Shown in pieces: positions 2,571 through 14,300 of a stretch of DNA of 14,300 nucleotides. The notes under the pieces were generated by a model. That model did not search any database. It was not told the origin of the DNA and saw only the letters and a list, made by a program, of their open reading frames with translations. The position numbers and the translations under genes were made by a program. Origin of the DNA: a virus (taxonomy: Duplodnaviria; Heunggongvirae; Uroviricota; Caudoviricetes); IMG/VR virus record IMGVR_UViG_2579778919_000011; one strand, written 5' to 3'. How positions within the stretch are numbered: the stretch's first letter is position 1; each line of letters starts with the position of its first letter.

Positions 2571-2756
2571 CTATCTTCGCGGCGCTGGCTTCTTCCACTG
2601 GTAGGCGGGTGATCTCATCATTTCGCGGAACCTGTCGCGCCGCGCTGTATCGGCCTTAATCATGCGCTCCATCTCCCGAACCTCTACCGGAGTAAGCTGG
2701 TGGCCTTCATGCTCCAGCTTTGCGGCTGTCAGTGCGGCTATCTGCTGCGGTGTCAT
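2571..2756 (-). CDS. Hypothetical small protein (61 aa)
   Basis: ATG at 2754-2756 with a weak AGGG upstream; charged, Arg-rich sequence. It is co-oriented with the upstream island operon. Short ORF, weak support. Confidence 0.35.
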   Translation of the reverse strand: MTPQQIAALTAAKLEHEGHQLTPVEVREMERMIKADTARRDRFREMMRSPAYQWKKPAPRR

Positions 2757-2863
2757 GGTTAGCCCTGTTGCGTGGTTTTGAATGGTTGCTACACTACCGG
2801 GAAACGGAAATGCGCAGGGGTCTTGCTCGTGTTCACAAACGCCCCTTTGCGGGCGTTTTTCTT

Positions 2864-3475
2864 CTACGGAATCAGGCTAATGCCTCTGGCTGCTTTCCCC
2901 GTCTTACGCTCAATCACGCCCGTGATTCTGTCCACTACCGGGCTGAATGCCTGCCAGTAAACACTCTCATAGCGAACCAGCACCCCTACTTTTTTGTTGA
3001 ATGTATCCCAGCGCATTCCCTTCGGCTTCGGGAAGGAACAGGGATTGTTAGCTAAATTACGTGTCTGTTCGGTGTTTCCCCAGACGGCATAACGCTGACG
3101 GCGCATTTTCATTCGCATCCGGCCTAACCTGTCCTCGCTCTGGCTGGTGTAGTGAAGTTTCCAGCACGCCCGGCAGCCAATATCTTTTTTGCCAATATAC
3201 AGCTTTGCAGCCCGTTTCATACAGTGGGGGCAAACGTACCATTCCCGCACGCCATACCCGGCCTGTGTGGTTGTGGTGCGAATCGCCCGCGTCACGCCGT
3301 TGATTGTCATGGCGTAGCTGTCGGCTTGCCGGAAGGTATACAACGTTCCGCTTTCGGTCTGGGTATAAAGCTGCGTACCCGGTTCAGCATCCGCCAGCCT
3401 GCTACGCATGTGCGAAAGGAATGGCAACCCTATGCGGGGCAGGTCGGTGGTATAGCTGCGCGTTCTGTCTCTCAC
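2864..3475 (-). CDS. Hypothetical protein with C4 zinc ribbon (203 aa), GTG start
   Basis: GTG at 3473-3475 is preceded by AGGAGG at 7-nt spacing. The protein contains CPHC-N15-CRAC (CxxC...CxxC). No family confidently recognised. Confidence 0.65.
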   Translation of the reverse strand: MRDRTRSYTTDLPRIGLPFLSHMRSRLADAEPGTQLYTQTESGTLYTFRQADSYAMTINGVTRAIRTTTTQAGYGVREWYVCPHCMKRAAKLYIGKKDIGCRACWKLHYTSQSEDRLGRMRMKMRRQRYAVWGNTEQTRNLANNPCSFPKPKGMRWDTFNKKVGVLVRYESVYWQAFSPVVDRITGVIERKTGKAARGISLIP

Positions 3476-3499
3476 TGGCTGGCCTCCTGCGAATTACTG

Positions 3500-3715
3500 C
3501 GCATTAACTGCGAACGGTGCGCAAATTGAATACGAAATAATATGCGTATTTTACTGTAAATTGCGCACTATTTTGCGCACTGCGAACCAATGGCGCGAGC
3601 CAGAATATTTTGGACTGCCTAAATCGAATATGGCTTCCAGCCCGCTACTGGCGCGGTTCTCTCTTCATATGGGCTTTGAGTCTGTCCAGTACAGTCCAGT
3701 ATTTCAACATCGGTG
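3500..3715. repeat. Intergenic module copy A (diverged direct repeat of 4110-4315)
   Basis: The 3580-3656 core aligns to 4173-4250 at roughly 78 percent identity by hand alignment (about 17 differences over 78 positions). Both copies carry several CTGCG/TGCGCA motifs and a CTGT-N5-ACAG dyad, here at 3682-3694. Confidence 0.6.
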
Positions 3716-3728
3716 ACTATACGGATTG

Positions 3729-4106
3729 CTAACATGCGCCGTTTTTTTTAACCCTTCGCAGATCCCGCCTTGCTTGCATTGAAACGGATCTCGCTAAACT
3801 CAGCTCAAGCCGTGCGATTCTGTCGGCATGTAGCCCCATGAGTCCGTTAATCAATGTCATCTCGCGCCATTCTTCTGTTCCCGGCGTCGGATTAGTCGCC
3901 AGTAATAGCCCGTATCTCTCAGCCATCATGAGGTTTCTTGCACGATTTCGCACCAGCGGAGAAAGCGCATCTTCTCCCTCAAACGGGAAGAATACCCGCC
4001 TACTGCGTTCGCCATGTTTGACGGCATTAGTATTGCCCAACGGTGCGCCTGCGCCTTTCCGCTTGCCACCCCATCCCGATCTTGATTGTTGGCTATTTTT
4101 TTTCAT
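3729..4106 (-). CDS. Terminase small subunit-like protein (125 aa); candidate packaging-redirection factor
   Basis: ATG at 4104-4106. The N-terminus GGKRKGAGAPLGNTNAVKHG matches the G-x-G-A-P-x-G-N-x-N-A-x-K-H-G motif I associate with one class of phage small terminase subunits. The size is typical of TerS. Assignment is by motif only. Confidence 0.55.
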   Translation of the reverse strand: MKKNSQQSRSGWGGKRKGAGAPLGNTNAVKHGERSRRVFFPFEGEDALSPLVRNRARNLMMAERYGLLLATNPTPGTEEWREMTLINGLMGLHADRIARLELSLARSVSMQARRDLRRVKKNGAC

Positions 4107-4109
4107 TTA

Positions 4110-4315
4110 ACGGCTCACTGTGCGCAAAAACCCTAACTGAATGCGCGGTTTTGCTGCGTACCTGACTGCGTACTGCGTACCAGTGGCGCGAACCTGAATA
4201 TTCTGGACGGTCTAAATCACGCTCTGGCTTCCAGCCCTCTGCTGGCGCGGGTTTAGCGCTACGAGGGTTTAAAATCTGTCAAGAACAGTCTAGAATTTTA
4301 GCCTGCGTTCGGTGC
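4110..4315. repeat. Intergenic module copy B (diverged direct repeat of 3500-3715)
   Basis: See copy A. The CTGT-N5-ACAG dyad is at 4276-4288. This copy lies immediately upstream of the TerS-like gene. Confidence 0.6.
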
Positions 4316-4320
4316 GAACC

Positions 4321-4671
4321 TCACGGCACAGACGAGTACCAGTAAAAGCCTGTTAGCCCGGCATCGCAGCGCTCACGATTAAGCACGCGTGGCGGTTGCT
4401 CTCTGGTCATCAACTCCAGCGAAGCATTACCTCCCTGCGTCTCCAGGCGGTATTGCCTGTCGGTAGTGGTGATGGCATCAGGCAATAACTTTATGGCGGC
4501 CTGGCTAAAGTCTCGCGGCGCGCCGTAAAATTGCGCATCAATAATATGAACCACATCGCCGTTAATCGTTGTCCGATAACGATCTGGCTGTATTGTAAAG
4601 CCCCCACAATGGATAGCAGATAGTGCCGGTGCAGAGGAGATCAGGCAGGCTGCCAGAATGTATTGCTTCAT
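4321..4671 (-). CDS. Small exported protein (116 aa) with N-terminal signal peptide
   Basis: ATG at 4669-4671 overlaps the upstream stop (ATGA). The N-terminus MKQYILAACLISSAPALSA is n-region plus hydrophobic core plus AxA-like cleavage site. No family recognised. Confidence 0.6.
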   Translation of the reverse strand: MKQYILAACLISSAPALSAIHCGGFTIQPDRYRTTINGDVVHIIDAQFYGAPRDFSQAAIKLLPDAITTTDRQYRLETQGGNASLELMTREQPPRVLNRERCDAGLTGFYWYSSVP

Positions 4672-5309
4672 TCTTCACCCACCAATTCATCCAGTTCAGC
4701 CAGCGTCAGAGGCTTTGGTACAGGCTTGTCGATATCGCCCATAATGCGCTGGAAGTTTCTGGCGGGCATATGGTTACGGTTCTCCAGTATTTTCGCCAGC
4801 GCGATAACATCCCACCATTTCAGGGTAATCAGCGCCTGAGCGCGGGAAAGGGATATTCGCTGTATATCGGCGTCCTCCCCACCAGCTACCCGGTATACCT
4901 CGGATAAATCACGAACATTTTTCATATCTGCTTTCCCGGACGTTTCCATCAGTGCGTCAATATCATCCTCCGTATAGCGTGATTGCGCGACGATACCAGC
5001 CAGAGAGCTAACCATAGCCCGGCATACTTGGTCTATCAGACGTAATCTGGCGTCATCGTTCGAGAGGGTGTAAGACTTAACCTCAGCCACATTCCGTGGA
5101 TAGTTGGCGTGCCATACCGCGACGGCTCCACACTCATCAACATCGCCGCCAAGGTAGGTTTTTGCCACTCGGTTATTACCCGATAATGCAATTTCTACCC
5201 CCTGTATGCCGAAAAACCATGCGGCTATCGCATGACCTGCTTCGTGTATTGCGAGATGTCTGGGCCAGCGATAGCTGCCTAACTCGATAATGGTGGGTTG
5301 TGTACTCAT
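4668..5309 (-). CDS. HEAGH zinc metallopeptidase-like protein (FtsH/M41-like motif, no AAA+ module)
   Basis: The ATG at 5307-5309 (MSTQPT...) is preceded by AGAGGGAAGA and sits 10 nt after the SSB stop. The ORF-track start at 5366 would overlap SSB by 47 nt. The protein contains LAIHEAGHAIAAW, resembling the FtsH zinc-binding HEAGHA motif. Confidence 0.7.
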   Translation of the reverse strand: MSTQPTIIELGSYRWPRHLAIHEAGHAIAAWFFGIQGVEIALSGNNRVAKTYLGGDVDECGAVAVWHANYPRNVAEVKSYTLSNDDARLRLIDQVCRAMVSSLAGIVAQSRYTEDDIDALMETSGKADMKNVRDLSEVYRVAGGEDADIQRISLSRAQALITLKWWDVIALAKILENRNHMPARNFQRIMGDIDKPVPKPLTLAELDELVGEE

Positions 5310-5319
5310 ATCTTCCCTC

Positions 5320-5781
5320 TCAGAATGGATCTTCATCATCAAACGGCGGGCGCTGGTCAAAATCATCAGGGGTGTTATATAGCTCCCATCCCGGCGCGGG
5401 TTGCGTGGTATGGCCCCTGCTGGCTTCGCTTGCTTTGACTGACTCGGCCCGCTTCCCGCCGGGGCGTACCGTTCTGGCGCTGATCACGCTGTCGGCTACT
5501 ACCTGATACCCCTGCTGTGTACCGCCATCCTTGCCCGTCCACTGATTGACCTGCATCGCTCCGGCAACACTGACTAAATCGCCTTTAACGTGTCCTGCCA
5601 GTGCGTCGGCCTGTTTGCCGAATGCCACCACGCCCAGCCAGAAAGTAACCTCTCCGCCCTCTGCTGCATGGCAGGGCAGTGCCACCGCTAACCGTCCCAT
5701 TGCCATGCTTGTACCGCTTGCTGTGGTGCGGGTCTGGGGATCTGCCACCAGCCGCCCGTATGCTGATATCTGTGCTGTCAT
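5320..5781 (-). CDS. ssb: Single-stranded DNA-binding protein (153 aa)
   Basis: OB-fold-like pattern TFWLGVVAFGKQADALAGHVKGD...W...YQVV, and an acidic C-terminal tail ...PPFDDEDPF resembling the SSB DDDIPF tail. Its start overlaps the upstream stop (TAATG). Confidence 0.85.
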   Translation of the reverse strand: MTAQISAYGRLVADPQTRTTASGTSMAMGRLAVALPCHAAEGGEVTFWLGVVAFGKQADALAGHVKGDLVSVAGAMQVNQWTGKDGGTQQGYQVVADSVISARTVRPGGKRAESVKASEASRGHTTQPAPGWELYNTPDDFDQRPPFDDEDPF

Positions 5782-6019: not shown

Positions 6020-6275
6020 TAATATCCCTACCAAACCCTACTAATCGATGAAACCCAGATATGGCGCGGCTTTCAGGCTAGTAGGGAATTGTTTTTCTTA
6101 CCCTACATAACCCTACTTATCCCTACTAAATCACTTCAACGGCATTTTACTGCCTGTTTTATTTGGTAGGGATATGTAGGGATAAGTAGGGATAAGTATA
6201 TATATCCCTACCAGTCTACAAACCCCGTCATTACTGGCCTTAAATGACTTTGTAGGGATAGGTAGGGATAAATCA
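6020..6275. repeat. Iteron array; putative island origin of replication
   Basis: Five direct GTAGGGATA copies at 6166, 6176, 6186, 6252 and 6262, the first three and last two at exact 10-bp spacing. Three inverted TATCCCTAC copies at 6023, 6118 and 6203, plus partial copies (CCCTAC at 6101 and 6111, GTAGGGAA at 6081). An AT-rich GTATATATAT lies at 6196-6205. The array is immediately 3' of the primase-helicase gene. Confidence 0.75.
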
Positions 6276-6283
6276 GGGGTAAA

Positions 6284-8728
6284 CTATTCTTCGCCCCCTT
6301 CGGCGGTGCTGCTGCCATATGCTCGCGGTATAAACTCCTCAGCCATCTCGTTATAGCCCACGTTGGTTTGCGCTCTGCCGTTAATGCTTCGCGTCAGGTA
6401 GCTGGCTCGGTACTCTTTTGCTGCTGATTTTATGGCGCGTGAAAACTTATTGACGGAAAGCGGTTTACCCAGCCCGTGATACTCCATAAACGCCAGGTAA
6501 AGATGATAAAGATACGCCCTCGGCTCTGGCTGGCCTGCCCATGTACCTCCGCCCATCATCATGCCTTTGGGTTCGTTCATGAAAAAAAGTGCCGCACACA
6601 TATCGATAACCGGATCTGTGCCGCGTTTAACGTCTAGCGCCTCCTGAGAATCGCGCTGCTCAAGTAACAGTGCCTTTGCTTTGTTCTGGTCGGAAAAGGT
6701 GGTTAGCAGGTGGCGGATAATCACCGGGATTTCTCGCCTGATTTTTGCGGTTAAATCCGGGTCTTTGTCTGCGTCTGATACCGGGTTATTAAACGGGAAT
6801 ATCACGCGGCGGCGGGCAATGCCCCCGTTTCGCTCCGTGAATGTCATCGGCTCGTTATTGGTTGCCATAACAACGGCATTTATCACGGTTGTGAACTGCT
6901 TTTCATATTTCCCATCAATCTCTACCGGATCGCCGCCCGTAATGGCTTTAATCCCCGCACCCTCTCCAACGTAGCGGGTCTGGTCAGGCATAATAATCAG
7001 GCTTTTCCCTACGAACTGCGCCCGTCCCCGTGCGGTGTCCAGCGTCATCATGCTACCGCTGGCGGTGTTGTGTTCACCTGCCAGCGTGGTTGCTATGCTG
7101 CTGAATACGGATTTCCCACTGCCGCCCTCGCCAGTTATCTCAATGAATAGCTGCCAGTCGTGACGCTTCGCCAGCACCATAAACAAGGCTGCTTTGATAC
7201 GCTCGGCCTTATGATGGTCGCCAGCCGTTGCATGATTCAGCCAACGGGTAAAATTGGGGGCGCTGGTGGAAATATTCTCCCCCGGCGCTGGCGGGGTGTA
7301 GGTGATCCCATTGTGGTTCATCAGCCAGTTACCCGGCGAATGGGCGGAAAACGTCTGCGTAGCGAGGTCATAAACGCCGTTATCAAAACCAATCAGATCC
7401 CCGCTCCGCTCACCAATTACCGGTATTTGCAGCTTCATGGTTGCGACAACCGATTTAATCCCTTTTTCGGTGTAGTGGGCTTCGTGCTCGTCGAAAATTG
7501 CCACCATAACCCTTTCTAATTCGCTGTCTGGTAGCTTCACCCATACGCCAGATTCGTAGCAGTAAACAGCGCCACTATCAGGGTTGACCGCCAACATATC
7601 CCAGCGAGATGAAAGCAACCGCGCTTTCTGGCTGGCTGCCATTTGTGCAATATCTCCGACTTCGGCTTTACGGCGGGATTTACCGCCCACAATGGCCTGT
7701 AGTTGTGGTTTCACGGCTTCCCCCTGAATCTGGTACATCGAATCGTTAAACGCAGCCGTAGCGACTTCCAGCCCGTTTTGCTGGCGGTAGTCGTCCCAGT
7801 CGGCTTTGTAGTCTGTCGGCGGCAGCGCCACCCAGCCAGCCACGGATAAGGCGGCTTTCTCTGCGGCCTCCCTGCCTGTATTGGCTTCTCCGTTTTGGTG
7901 GTGGTCGTTGTCTGCGGCGATAATAATTTGCGCCTTCGGGTGTTTCCGGCGCATTACTCCGGCAACGGGTAGCAGGTTGCCCGCGTCAATTGCTGCCACT
8001 GCCAGCGCGTCCGGGCGCATCAGGTGAACTGACAGAGCGGTAGCCAGCCCCTCGGCAATCACGACGCTTTGAGGCCGTTCCAGCGCGTTTACGGCGTAAT
8101 ATGCCCCGCGCTTTGCTGAACCTGTCAGAAGTCGCTTTTCTCCCTGCGGGGTGATGGTCTGCGCGGCTGTGACTGCGCCGGATTCATCCACCAGCTCCAG
8201 CAATAACGAACCATCGGGCATTAGCGGGTAATTGAACCCGGTCAGCCCTTTTGATTGCAGGTAATCAGATTCGCCCTGTGTGACGTTCTGGCGCATTCCG
8301 GCATACAGACGGGTAAACGTTGCCCTTCGCTGCTCTGCGTCCTCTGCTGCCTGTTGCTGGCGCTCCTGCTCACGCTGCTGGCGGTCAGCCTCCAGTTGCT
8401 CCCTTCTCTGGCTCGCTGCCGTCTGGTCGGTTTGTGCTGCCCGGTAATCAATACCCAGCACATCAGCGGCAAGGTGCGCCGCCTCCGTGGTGTCGCAGTT
8501 GTTAACCCGCTTGATTAAATCCAGCCCGTCGCCCGCGCCGCACTGATTGCAGATAAAGCTGCCGCGCCCGTTGTCGTCGAACCGGAAGCGATCCGTACCG
8601 CCACATGCAGGGCAGGGGGCATGGCGGCGTGATGAATCAGGCACGTCGATAGACAGGCCAGCCAGCACATAAGGCCAGTTACCAGCGGCGGCGGTGGTCA
8701 CTTCGCGGATAAAGTCGATATTACGCAT
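6284..8728 (-). CDS. Primase-helicase (P4 alpha-like / Pri-Rep), 814 aa
   Basis: N-terminal zinc ribbon CPACGG...CNQCG; Toprim-like motifs VVIAEGLATALS and IIIAADNDHH; Walker A GEGGSGKS in the C-terminal NTPase domain. GAGGGAG lies 7 nt upstream of the ATG at 8726-8728. Confidence 0.9.
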   Translation of the reverse strand: MRNIDFIREVTTAAAGNWPYVLAGLSIDVPDSSRRHAPCPACGGTDRFRFDDNGRGSFICNQCGAGDGLDLIKRVNNCDTTEAAHLAADVLGIDYRAAQTDQTAASQRREQLEADRQQREQERQQQAAEDAEQRRATFTRLYAGMRQNVTQGESDYLQSKGLTGFNYPLMPDGSLLLELVDESGAVTAAQTITPQGEKRLLTGSAKRGAYYAVNALERPQSVVIAEGLATALSVHLMRPDALAVAAIDAGNLLPVAGVMRRKHPKAQIIIAADNDHHQNGEANTGREAAEKAALSVAGWVALPPTDYKADWDDYRQQNGLEVATAAFNDSMYQIQGEAVKPQLQAIVGGKSRRKAEVGDIAQMAASQKARLLSSRWDMLAVNPDSGAVYCYESGVWVKLPDSELERVMVAIFDEHEAHYTEKGIKSVVATMKLQIPVIGERSGDLIGFDNGVYDLATQTFSAHSPGNWLMNHNGITYTPPAPGENISTSAPNFTRWLNHATAGDHHKAERIKAALFMVLAKRHDWQLFIEITGEGGSGKSVFSSIATTLAGEHNTASGSMMTLDTARGRAQFVGKSLIIMPDQTRYVGEGAGIKAITGGDPVEIDGKYEKQFTTVINAVVMATNNEPMTFTERNGGIARRRVIFPFNNPVSDADKDPDLTAKIRREIPVIIRHLLTTFSDQNKAKALLLEQRDSQEALDVKRGTDPVIDMCAALFFMNEPKGMMMGGGTWAGQPEPRAYLYHLYLAFMEYHGLGKPLSVNKFSRAIKSAAKEYRASYLTRSINGRAQTNVGYNEMAEEFIPRAYGSSTAEGGEE

Positions 8729-9761: not shown

Positions 9762-9800
9762 GTCACCGCCTGATGTGCAAATATCATGATTGGCGGTGAC
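9762..9800 (-). promoter_or_regulatory. Perfect 9-bp inverted repeat GTCACCGCC-N21-GGCGGTGAC upstream of the Icd-like gene
   Basis: Arms at 9762-9770 and 9792-9800. The spacer contains the palindrome ATCATGAT. It lies 28 nt upstream of the Icd-like start and could be an operator or an RNA stem-loop in the 5' leader. Confidence 0.4.
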
Positions 9801-9923
9801 GTTAGCAGGGTTTGCACTACCGGACACAAAGGAAACCGGCCTACGCGAACGTAGCCCCACTAACGCCACCATTGATACAGTACGGGTAAGTCCGCTGATT
9901 TGATGTGCGTAGTGAATGGACAC

Positions 9924-9946
9924 AAAAAAAGACGCTTTCGGCGTCT
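9924..9946 (-). terminator. Rho-independent terminator (minus strand)
   Basis: Minus strand reads A-GACGC-CGAAA-GCGTC-TTTTTTT: a GC-rich 5-6 bp stem, 5-nt loop and a T7 tract. It is in the non-coding region between the 60-aa ORF and the Icd-like gene. Confidence 0.5.
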
Positions 9947-10005
9947 GTGTCGCCCTTAGTGTGTTCGGGGTGCAAATCCCGGTTGCTGATTTTGCAGCAA
10001 CGCTT
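9924..10005 (-). ncRNA. Candidate small structured RNA ending at the terminator (possible C4/CI-like immunity RNA)
   Basis: Between a weak TATAGT-like -10 (around 10010-10016 on the minus strand) and the terminator, the minus strand can form three hairpins: GTTGCTG-N6-CAGCAAC (9982-10001), CGGG-N8-CCCG (about 9966-9981) and the terminator stem. The predicted length of about 80 nt and the position upstream of an icd-like gene match the P1 c4 / P4 CI arrangement. Inference only. Confidence 0.25.
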
Positions 10006-10233
10006 GGACTATAACAGCTTTTCTCTGCTAGGTGGTCATACCAGATAAAACCGTAACCCTTTAAGAGTTTTTCCTGTGCACGGCTCACCATCTTTTTGTT
10101 GAGGGTAAGCGCCTCGCGTACTGGTAACGGAACTCCGGGCGCTGCGGTATCAATATCAGGTTTTGTAAGGTTGCAGATGTCAACTTTTGACAACATGCCA
10201 GCCAGATTAAAGGCTTCTTTCTGGGCGGCAGGT

Positions 10234-12940: not shown

Positions 12941-13040
12941 GCTGTGCCTTAAAGAGTGATTGAGCCAGGCGGTAAGGCTTCCCGCTTTTCGCCCCGTCGG
13001 GCTAGGCTCAATCTGTCCTCTGATTCTTTACATATCTTGG

Positions 13041-14300
13041 TTACTTCGCCTTTCTCAGCGGTGTAACGTTGTATTCTTCGCCGCGTTCCAGTGCCACCAG
13101 CAAGCCCGCCCACTGTGTTAACGCAGCCCGGCGTTCATCAAAGTATTGGTGGCGGTTATAGATACCCTCCACGCCTTTAATTTTGTGGTTAAGGCATCTT
13201 TCTGCGACTACCGGATCAACGCCCAGCGCGGCTAAATGGGTGCGGGCCGTGCGCCGGAAGTCGTGAATGGTGAAGTTCGGCACGTCCGGCATTTCAGCGC
13301 GAACCTTCGCCAGCGCAACGGGCAGGGTGCTTTCCTGAATATGGGGGATCATGCGGTTTTGCATCTTTCTGGCTGGCAGTACCCATGCGCTGTTGCATGA
13401 GAACGTTTTAAGCTCTCTCAGCCATTCGACGGCTGGCGGTGCTAATGGGATGTCTATAGCGTCGCCGTTTTTGCTGCGTTCCTCTGGCAAGCGCCATACG
13501 GCTTTATCAAAATCGAACTCCTCCCAGCGGGCGGCGCATAACTCCATTTTGCGGACGCATAACGCTAACAGTAATTTGAACGTGATTTCGTTCTGGCGAC
13601 TGAATCCCTTAGCCGTGCGCATGGCTTTGAATAGCTGGATTAACTCATCGCGGGTTAACCAGCGGTCACGGGCAACTTCTTTCCCTCCGGCGTCTGCCAC
13701 CTCAAAGGCTGAACATGGGTTAATCTCCAGCGCGTGCCGTTTGATTCCGTAGTCGAATATGCGGCGCGTCCATCTCAGCACGTCCGTTGCTATGGTCGGC
13801 GCTCCACGGTCAACAATACCTTTCAGCATGTCATCGATATGGCGCGGTTTCACGTCCTCTACCTTCATGCTGCCAATGCAGGGGTTTATATCTTTGTCGA
13901 TACGGCGGCGGAGTATATCGGGGTGCTTCCAGCGCGGGAGGATCTGACGCTCAAAGTATTCAGCGGCAAGCTCTGAAACGCGCATGGCGTTCTTCTCTGC
14001 TTCCATCTTCGCCAGTGCTTCGGCTTTCCGTTCCTGCTTCTCTCCCGCGACGTCATAACCCAGCGCAACACGCGCCGATAGCTCTTTGGCTGTCTCTCTG
14101 GCCTTTGATAGTGATAGCTCGGCATATGAGCCAATCAGCATGGCGCGGGGTTTCCCTGCGAATTTATAGCGGAATCGCCAGACGGGGGTCTGGTAGTTTT
14201 CGCGGTATGAAAGATAAAGCCCGTTACCGTCAGAGCGTCCCTCGAATCGCTCCCCGGCCTTTATCCATGCGCGGATCTGCATGTCTGTGAGTTTTGGCAT
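13041..14300 (-). CDS. int: Tyrosine recombinase / integrase, P4-family (419 aa)
   Basis: The N-terminus MPKLTDMQIRAWIKAGERF...DGNGLYL resembles the arm-binding domain of P4-type integrases. C-terminal catalytic residues are present: HDFRRTARTH (HxxR) and GIYNRHQY (catalytic Tyr). The ATG is the last three bases of the window, so the promoter is outside it. Confidence 0.9.
   Translation of the reverse strand: MPKLTDMQIRAWIKAGERFEGRSDGNGLYLSYRENYQTPVWRFRYKFAGKPRAMLIGSYAELSLSKARETAKELSARVALGYDVAGEKQERKAEALAKMEAEKNAMRVSELAAEYFERQILPRWKHPDILRRRIDKDINPCIGSMKVEDVKPRHIDDMLKGIVDRGAPTIATDVLRWTRRIFDYGIKRHALEINPCSAFEVADAGGKEVARDRWLTRDELIQLFKAMRTAKGFSRQNEITFKLLLALCVRKMELCAARWEEFDFDKAVWRLPEERSKNGDAIDIPLAPPAVEWLRELKTFSCNSAWVLPARKMQNRMIPHIQESTLPVALAKVRAEMPDVPNFTIHDFRRTARTHLAALGVDPVVAERCLNHKIKGVEGIYNRHQYFDERRAALTQWAGLLVALERGEEYNVTPLRKAK

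Follow-up and report, generated by a model that had tools for sequence, protein, structure and literature searches.

What is the function of two similar intergenic sequences of about 200 nucleotides (nt) that frame a small gene in an integrated phage satellite? Both are found in a 14,300-nt stretch of viral DNA (IMG/VR record IMGVR_UViG_2579778919_000011; "the window" is this whole stretch), which carries a Gram-negative satellite of the phage-inducible chromosomal island (PICI) type. The variable "late zone" of this satellite holds both sequences, which we call modules A and B. The initial annotation took the framed gene for a small-terminase (TerS)-like gene and offered three possible functions for the repeats, namely a packaging site, duplicated promoters or a pair of small RNAs. 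The packaging site is the one that we favour: in our tentative interpretation, the modules are pac-type packaging signals that mimic the TerS recognition sites of a helper phage. The argument for it comes from a short tandem repeat, homologous to an element upstream of the TerS genes of DUF2280 phages, and not from a likeness to cos sites or from a neighbouring TerS gene. The region is laid out as follows.

4107-4320, minus strand: module copy B, the whole intergenic region between the 116-residue gene and the 125-residue gene, and the 5' leader of the latter
3729-4106, minus strand: 125-residue gene (378 nt), coding for a member of a conserved uncharacterised satellite protein family
3476-3728, minus strand: module copy A, the whole intergenic region between the 125-residue gene and the 203-residue gene, and the 5' leader of the latter
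2864-3475, minus strand: 203-residue gene, downstream of copy A

The modules do flank the 125-residue gene, as described in the initial annotation, but the genes are on the minus strand, so that copy B leads into the 125-residue gene and copy A into the 203-residue gene. The repeat itself is real and far above chance. The computational alignment that had been proposed as its test confirmed it: with MAFFT (3476-3728 against 4107-4320), the mean column identity is 78%, the same value as had been obtained by hand for the best-aligned parts. Two blocks align without gaps, one with 85% identity over 52 nt (3574-3625 and 4167-4218) and the other with 73% over 74 nt (3631-3704 and 4225-4298). In a blastn comparison, copy A (3504-3715) and copy B (4107-4305) are 75% identical over 132 nt with an E of 6e-22, and their Smith-Waterman score is 102, compared to 16.8 ± 2.4 (maximum 32) for 1000 shuffles. 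Hence, the two regions are diverged direct repeats by the standards of alignment statistics. The TGCG-type motifs noticed earlier are likewise found in both copies, and 10 of the 15 occurrences of TGCGNAC in the window fall inside the two modules.

Read in the sense of the genes, each module begins with a tandem 10-mer, continues with a core of about 70 nt and ends with an array of TGCGNAC iterons, which extends up to the next start codon.

3682-3702, minus strand: tandem 10-mer of copy A, ATACTGGACTG TACTGGACAG in gene sense
4276-4296, minus strand: tandem 10-mer of copy B, ATTCTAGACTG TTCTTGACAG in gene sense, of the TTCTNGAC type
3587-3656, minus strand: core of copy A
4180-4250, minus strand: core of copy B
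3488-3587: iteron array of copy A, about eight TGCG(A/C/T)A(C) units that separate the core from the start codon of the 203-residue gene
4112-4180: iteron array of copy B, TGCG(T/C)AC units that separate the core from the start codon of the 125-residue gene
4303-4319: two more iteron units of copy B

The tandems of A and B belong to different sequence types, and only B-type copies have two GGTTCGCA units ahead of the tandem. Following the tandem in gene sense are GATTTTAAACCC, a hypervariable stretch of about 12 nt and then the core, which contains a GGCT-N3-AGCC dyad, two copies of a TGGCGCG direct repeat and an imperfect palindrome of about 30 bp centred on AATATT. The CTGT-N5-ACAG dyad that had been singled out in the initial annotation is present in both copies (3682-3694 and 4276-4288). 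However, once more copies were aligned, it turned out to be a by-product of the tandem direct repeat of about 10 nt and is better described as a part of it.

The module is not confined to the window. We counted 92 occurrences, distributed over 51 of 5,426 complete E. coli genomes (median two per genome), always on the chromosome and always in satellites of the same layout. In a profile search that covered E. coli and eight metagenome contigs, the copies were paired about 600 nt apart around the same 378-nt gene. The eight metagenome loci are the true ones retained by nhmmer from a pattern scan that otherwise gave mostly chance matches in GC-rich contigs; a strict-pattern scan of genome contigs found Shimwellia only, the pattern being too strict. 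The satellites that carry the module have at least four types of primase (P4-family, DUF927, toprim and DUF5906).

Most of the islands contain two copies of the module, and some of the E. coli satellites depart from this paired arrangement. In strain ECONIH4 (5177-5434 of its locus), and also in 0H15-0H26 and CAVP776, a single hybrid module is present and the 125-residue gene is absent. The iteron side of the ECONIH4 hybrid is identical to copy A, and its core and tandem side is identical to copy B. The switch point lies inside a shared ACCA, where the identity between the flanking differences is only 4 nt long, which is short for RecA-type recombination between repeats that are 78% identical. 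In strain ET479 (7520-7605 of its locus), copy B has lost its core and tandem in a deletion that extends from a 3' iteron to a 5' GTTCGCAG unit. The hybrid and the deletion together indicate that the module repeats recombine, and since the ET479 deletion runs between iteron units, the iterons themselves appear to be recombination substrates.

The tandem relates the module to a group of temperate phages, in which a DUF2280 gene is found directly before TerL and after the gene of a PF18894 metallopeptidase. The group includes Klebsiella phage ST899-OXA48phi17.1, Pectobacterium phage ZF40, Salmonella phage Oslo and E. coli prophages. Because its gene is directly upstream of TerL, the DUF2280 protein is, by position, the small terminase of these phages. 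The gap between the stop codon of the metallopeptidase gene and the start codon of the DUF2280 gene is about 30 nt long, and it is homologous to the tandem 10-mer of the module. The module tandem is detected by nhmmer in a GenBank phage (L152), and local alignments of the tandem with the phage element reach z = 8.7-9.3 against shuffles. The copy A tandem has an exact match of 17 nt with the element before the DUF2280 TerS gene of phage ST899-OXA48phi17.1, the gap of which reads TAACTGGACTG TACTGGACGG ATGGTGAAACATG. The first unit of copy A is also identical to the first unit of the E. coli prophages, in which the gap reads ATACTGGACTG TATAAGACGA ATGG. The tandem precedes the DUF2280 genes of six GenBank phages, 80 IMG/VR loci and five E. 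coli prophages, and its consensus, NNNNGAC-NG repeated twice in units of about 10 bp, is matched by the modules.

The same element is found in satellites that have a DUF2280 gene of their own. A TTCTGGAC-type tandem, which copy B resembles, precedes satellite-borne DUF2280 genes, and a tandem of the TTCTNGAC type, to which copy B belongs, is also found ahead of PICI-borne DUF2280 genes. A Klebsiella relative of the window satellite contains one full module and, in front of its DUF2280 gene, a bare tandem.

In the 80 IMG/VR loci, the tandem occurs in four types, ACTGGAC/ACTGGAC, TCTGGAA/TTTGGAA, TTTATAC/TTTATAC and TCAGGAC/TTAGGAC. A comparison of the first 135 nt of the DUF2280 genes from these loci and the six GenBank phages shows that TerS is a mosaic. 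Each tandem type is paired with its own variant of residues 19-45, with 48-74% identity between the types, and residues 46-130 are 95-98% identical across the types. Furthermore, the two 7-mers of one site change together: on average 6.0 of their 7 positions are identical, compared to 4.59 for permuted partners, and none of the 20,000 permutations reached the observed value. Judged from these sequences, TerS residues 19-45 look like an exchangeable DNA-specificity cassette that switches together with the type of the upstream tandem.

Two phage records have their ends at the tandem. The linear record of phage PDP110P1 (OZ035751.1) starts at the first base of the tandem with ACTGGACTGTACTGGACGG and ends just 5' of the tandem with ...GGCTTAATA, and the contig of Klebsiella phage KP12 ends 3 nt inside tandem unit 1. 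These record ends may be physical genome ends. Phage ZF40 has been reported to be circularly permuted (PMC3391216), and this fits headful packaging. Finally, four genomes (CFS3246, strain 35, 873.10 and EC09) contain both the satellite and a metallopeptidase-DUF2280-TerL prophage, where about 0.5 would be expected by chance. We consider this co-occurrence to be mildly supportive of a helper relationship.

What we observed directly is the repeat with its anatomy and recurrence, the homology between the tandem and the phage element and, in phages, the co-variation. From them we infer TerS binding to the tandem, a packaging start at that site and the roles of the core, the iterons and the 125-residue protein. 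The N-terminal DNA-binding part of a DUF2280 TerS would recognise the tandem, which would thus be the recognition element of a pac-type packaging signal. As the satellite has no terminase of its own, its replicated concatemers would be taken up by the terminase of the helper and packaged by the headful mechanism. With two tandem types, one satellite could be recognised by two TerS specificity classes, either of helpers or satellite-borne. The core and iterons, which are specific to the satellite, would serve as the binding site of a satellite protein, for which the adjacent 125-residue protein is the obvious candidate, and this binding would bias the terminase toward satellite DNA, similar to the role of Rpp in EcCICFT073. 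The fully developed form of this scheme is a composite signal, in which the tandem recruits the helper DUF2280 TerS, the 125-residue protein binds the core and iterons as an Rpp-like adaptor (unrelated to Rpp in sequence) that redirects the headful terminase, and two helper classes are served. This form is possible, but we regard it as doubtful.

More than 100 "hypothetical" proteins, encoded in satellites throughout the Enterobacterales, form the family of the 125-residue protein. In the AlphaFold (AF2) model, a disordered, basic and highly conserved N-terminal arm (GWGGKRxGAGAPxGNTNAVKHGERS) is followed by a helical hairpin. The "TerS-like" label of the initial annotation could not be upheld. 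The resemblance to TerS is limited to a GNxNAxKHG motif of about 25 residues and is below every family threshold: the match to phrog_1889 has an E of 2e-3 over 21 residues only, that to NF040601 scores 20 bits against a cut-off of 120, and the best phage matches, which are streptococcal TerS proteins, have an E of about 0.6. The protein has no match in Pfam, a Foldseek search of the PDB with the model returned nothing with an E below 0.4, and the hhalign probability of a relationship to DUF2280 is 0.04%. It has no sequence relation to any solved structure, Rpp included. With no family match, solved relative or fold match, the protein could not be identified as a TerS or an Rpp-like protein. 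A DUF2280 gene follows the homologue of the 125-residue gene in the Klebsiella satellite, a DUF2280 remnant follows it in Dickeya, and in a Salmonella element the homologue is located between a DUF2280 gene and head genes. Synteny in these three elements links the family to packaging.

The closest known parallel is the E. coli PICI EcCICFT073, in which the corresponding zone holds two functional cos sites, cos1 being located directly upstream of rppA (Fillol-Salom et al. 2018, PMC6092414; 2019, PMC6739421). Its satellite-specific cosB is read by an Rpp-TerS complex (PMC6092414, PMC6739421). Both elements are Gram-negative PICIs without a terminase of their own and with two related packaging-type sites after the replication genes. 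In both, one site is directly upstream of a small gene, rppA there and the 125-residue gene here, with copy B abutting its start codon. Both combine a helper-like recognition or cleavage part with a satellite-specific flank, which is the divergent cosB in EcCICFT073 and the core and iterons in the modules. The two differ in that the cosQ and cosN of EcCICFT073 are lambda-type and identical to those of the helper, whereas the modules have no lambda cosN. The part shared with phages is here the tandem 10-mer of DUF2280-TerS phages, which are probably headful packagers, and the packaging role of the modules is putative.

Phased short repeats that are bound by the small terminase are a known form of pac site, as in the pacL and pacR boxes of SPP1 and the hexamer clusters of P1 pac. 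Like these, the elements described here consist of short direct repeats that are spaced by about one helical turn, located at or immediately ahead of TerS and arranged around a central region, and the specificity would likewise reside in the N-terminal DNA-binding domain of TerS. However, there is no sequence similarity, and the DUF2280 assignment derives from position, co-variation and record ends. The strategy also has counterparts among the Staphylococcus aureus pathogenicity islands (SaPIs): SaPIbov5 carries the cos site of its helper, and SaPI1 and SaPIbov1 have their own TerS plus Ppi. The shared options are to copy the helper packaging signal, or to have an own TerS together with an adjacent gene for a small interference protein. 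Klebsiella and Salmonella relatives of the window satellite carry a DUF2280 TerS adjoining the homologue of the 125-residue gene. The SaPIs are Gram-positive and show no homology to these elements, and the window element lacks a TerS.

Searches for previously described packaging sites gave no match. Lambda cosN (GGGCGGCGACCT) is not found inside either module at up to 3 mismatches, and the 19-nt cohesive end of P2/P4 cos (GGCGAGGCGGGGAAAGCAC) has no match in the window at up to 3 mismatches. The comparison with cos regions that the initial annotation had proposed revealed no similarity to lambdoid, HK97-like or P2 cos. When blastn was run with the whole region and with an 86-nt core against 50,697 phage records, only chance matches were obtained, and exact-pattern scans of IMG/VR for the core returned none or chance matches. 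The core matches no other place in the complete E. coli genomes, even at E up to 5, and hence it is not a copy of a resident prophage cos site. A likeness of copy B to lambda "CGCGGGTTTTCGCTA" was dismissed as chance, since it is located within the most variable stretch, has no equivalent in copy A and has the wrong orientation. The possibility that the core is the decayed 5' end of a DUF2280 gene was not supported either: nhmmer comparison with phage TerS regions gave an E of only 0.14-0.5, and tblastn with DUF2280 proteins as queries found nothing in the modules.

A separate observation concerns a Serratia fonticola satellite (L140, 5786-5796), which contains an exact 11-mer, GGGCGGCGACC, equal to lambda cosN minus its last base. 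It is located 215 nt upstream of the homologue of the 125-residue gene and is followed by CGGTCGGA repeats. We keep it as a lead only, since the sequences around it show no similarity to a genuine lambda-type cos: the alignment score is 22, compared to a null of 17.6 ± 2.3.

Several observations weigh against the packaging interpretation. A phage counterpart exists for only about 25-35 nt of the module of about 200 nt. The conservation between A and B is best in the core and iterons, for which no phage match was obtained; the core is also without any other match in E. coli. Because the site and the TerS domain are adjacent, physical linkage confounds the co-variation between the tandem and TerS residues 19-45. 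The termini of the PDP110P1 and KP12 records could be the result of rotation by software and not physical ends. No DUF2280 prophage was detectable in 47 of the 51 satellite-bearing genomes, and two of the four genomes with co-occurrence, CFS3246 and strain 35, probably represent one strain, as their chromosome lengths are identical. The ECONIH4 and ET479 variants mean that the full arrangement is dispensable, at least for persistence. We also know of no DUF2280 phage in which the pac site has been mapped, and the term "TerS recognition site" is our own interpretation.

Alternatively, the modules may be promoter/operator regions, or expression-control regions of another kind, of the genes that follow them, the 125-residue and the 203-residue gene. 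The tandems and iterons would then bind an activator or repressor of the helper or the satellite and time the expression of the late zone to helper induction. We consider this unlikely, although the position of the modules agrees with it: each copy fills the whole 5' intergenic region and ends at the ribosome-binding site. The tandem units are one helical turn apart, similar to activator boxes, and one unit of copy B contains TTGACA. Copy B alone has a -35/-10 pair (TTTAAA-17-TAGAAT) on the opposite strand, and the -10 pattern NANNAT is kept in other copies. In addition, GGTACGCA/GTTCGCA iterons that resemble those of the module are found right after the origin in the Serratia (L140, 5477-5640) and Dickeya (L143, 2350-2560) relatives, where a core cannot be recognised. 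The distance to the homologue of the 125-residue gene is 3.5 kb in Dickeya, and such GTWCGCA iterons by the origin, away from this homologue, fit a site for a general regulator. However, consensus scans found no sigma-70-like promoter on the gene strand in the window or in the Klebsiella module, and the duplicated promoters proposed in the initial annotation thus gained no positive support. Within the module, sequence variation is highest where a -10 element would fall. The tandem of the phages and of the Klebsiella satellite is 5-10 nt away from the TerS Shine-Dalgarno sequence, so that TerS could not be expressed from a promoter at this place. Finally, the tandem type tracks the N-terminal region of TerS and not any known regulator.

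It is also conceivable, but improbable, that the arrangement is largely a relic, in which one copy or the tandem alone is functional and the second copy persists with no role of its own. Unequal recombination between the tandem upstream of the 125-residue gene and a former DUF2280 tandem would have created copy A, with a second set of core and iterons replacing the lost terminase gene. The Klebsiella satellite, with its full module and a bare tandem before DUF2280, is a possible starting arrangement for such a duplication, and no DUF2280 remnant is present in the window. That recombination does take place, both between copies and between iterons, is demonstrated by the ECONIH4 hybrid and the ET479 core deletion. 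The sequences of the copies argue otherwise. A and B have diverged to about 75-78% identity, yet neither the set of blocks nor their order differs between them; A-type copies are conserved in many lineages of E. coli and in metagenome contigs; and the tandem of copy A is intact, with a perfectly duplicated unit of a type that is present in living phages.

The third proposal of the initial annotation, a pair of small structured RNAs, was considered together with cis-acting RNA elements of the operon transcript, such as antitermination or processing sites. Both are very improbable. The module does contain local dyads (CCAGY-N5-GCTGG and GGCT-N3-AGCC) and the imperfect palindrome of about 30 nt, and one pair of columns changes on both sides, from C-G to A-U, in five sequences, but a symmetric site for protein binding would show one such compensatory change just as readily. 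No Rfam family matches the module even at E up to 10, and no terminator is predicted. Over 133 columns, the RNAalifold consensus has an energy of only -10.4 kcal/mol and a covariation term of -0.27, and the z-scores against column shuffles are -1.6 for the sense and -0.3 for the antisense strand. Hence, neither strand has a conserved fold.

Lastly, P4 has iteron-bearing ori and crr regions, and the dense iterons of the modules and the AT-rich stretch in copy A could suggest an origin or crr-like arrays bound by the primase, but this is hardly credible and was rejected, since a typical origin with a different iteron is located elsewhere and the same module is found with at least four primase types.

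6040-6290: likely satellite replication origin, in the 290-nt gap right after the primase gene, with the iteron TATCCCTAC and, as its inverse, GTAGGGATA in more than 12 copies around an AT-rich centre

The remaining part of the window represents a satellite of known architecture. The host DNA is E. coli chromosome, and the integrated satellite, with its genes on the minus strand, follows dinD.

1-672: yicG, E. coli chromosome
910-1746: dinD, E. coli chromosome
4668-5366, minus strand: gene of a 232-residue HExxH metallopeptidase-like protein
5320-5781, minus strand: SSB
6284-8728, minus strand: P4-family primase
9789-10014, minus strand: C4/isrK immunity RNAs, above the Rfam gathering threshold
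12946-13012, minus strand: int-alpA RNA between alpA and int, above the Rfam gathering threshold (64.9 bits)
13041-14300, minus strand: integrase of the satellite

Within 9789-10014, the Rfam scores are 80.8 bits for the C4 antisense RNA, 73 bits for isrK and 49.3 bits for the c4-a1b1 targets, and all three matches are within an open reading frame annotated as Icd-like. Together with the int-alpA RNA, they indicate an RNA immunity module of the P1/P4 type. The 203-residue gene has a GTG start preceded by an AGGAGG Shine-Dalgarno sequence, and its product contains a CxxC...CxxC motif; family searches with this protein gave no match. The 232-residue protein has a HEAGH motif and a weak M41-peptidase-like relative in the Salmonella element L146. 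As its gene occupies the place equivalent to that of the PF18894 metallopeptidase gene, which precedes the tandem and TerS in the phages, the late zone seems to descend from such a phage region.

Gram-negative PICIs have a four-zone layout (Tommasini et al. 2023, PMC10111431). The window element shares its order: integration with integrase and AlpA, Bro with the C4/isrK immunity RNAs, replication with primase, SSB and origin, and the late zone. It also shares the variable late zone as the place where cos sites and captured phage late genes are found. The difference is that this paper contains no description of the module, of the family of the 125-residue protein or of DUF2280-type helpers (PMC10111431).

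Two relatives display features of their own. The Salmonella enterica element L146 (4472-10339) has the homologue of the 125-residue gene downstream of a DUF927 primase gene, where it is placed between a DUF2280 gene and a complete series of genes for head and tail proteins, which comprises the major capsid protein PF09950, E217_gp27, the tail terminator, and sheath-like and tube proteins. It is either a satellite whose late zone is elongated or a PICI-like element that forms capsids. In E. coli D5 (2610-4611 of its locus), two tandem dinD genes are found at the end of the satellite, where the window and other strains have one, and the attachment site may be in or adjoining dinD.

It is already known that satellites copy the packaging sites of their helpers and that PICIs can have two such sites. 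We found no description of the module, its link to DUF2280 phages, the pairing of tandem and TerS specificity or the family of the 125-residue protein in the searchable literature. Many Gram-negative PICIs have been classed as incomplete since no packaging function was recognisable in them; EcCIMP1, for example, was described as having no identifiable terminase or capsid genes (PMC11773190). Short, defined packaging signals would be useful for transducible synthetic islands and cosmid-like delivery vectors. The module and the family of the 125-residue protein are a concrete candidate for how one such group of PICIs gets packaged, and the analysis points to temperate phages with a DUF2280 small terminase as their helper class. 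For these phages, it suggests where the packaging signal is located and that TerS residues 19-45 set its specificity. Furthermore, the different tandem types of copies A and B are a candidate answer to the published question of why some PICIs, such as EcCICFT073, keep two packaging sites.

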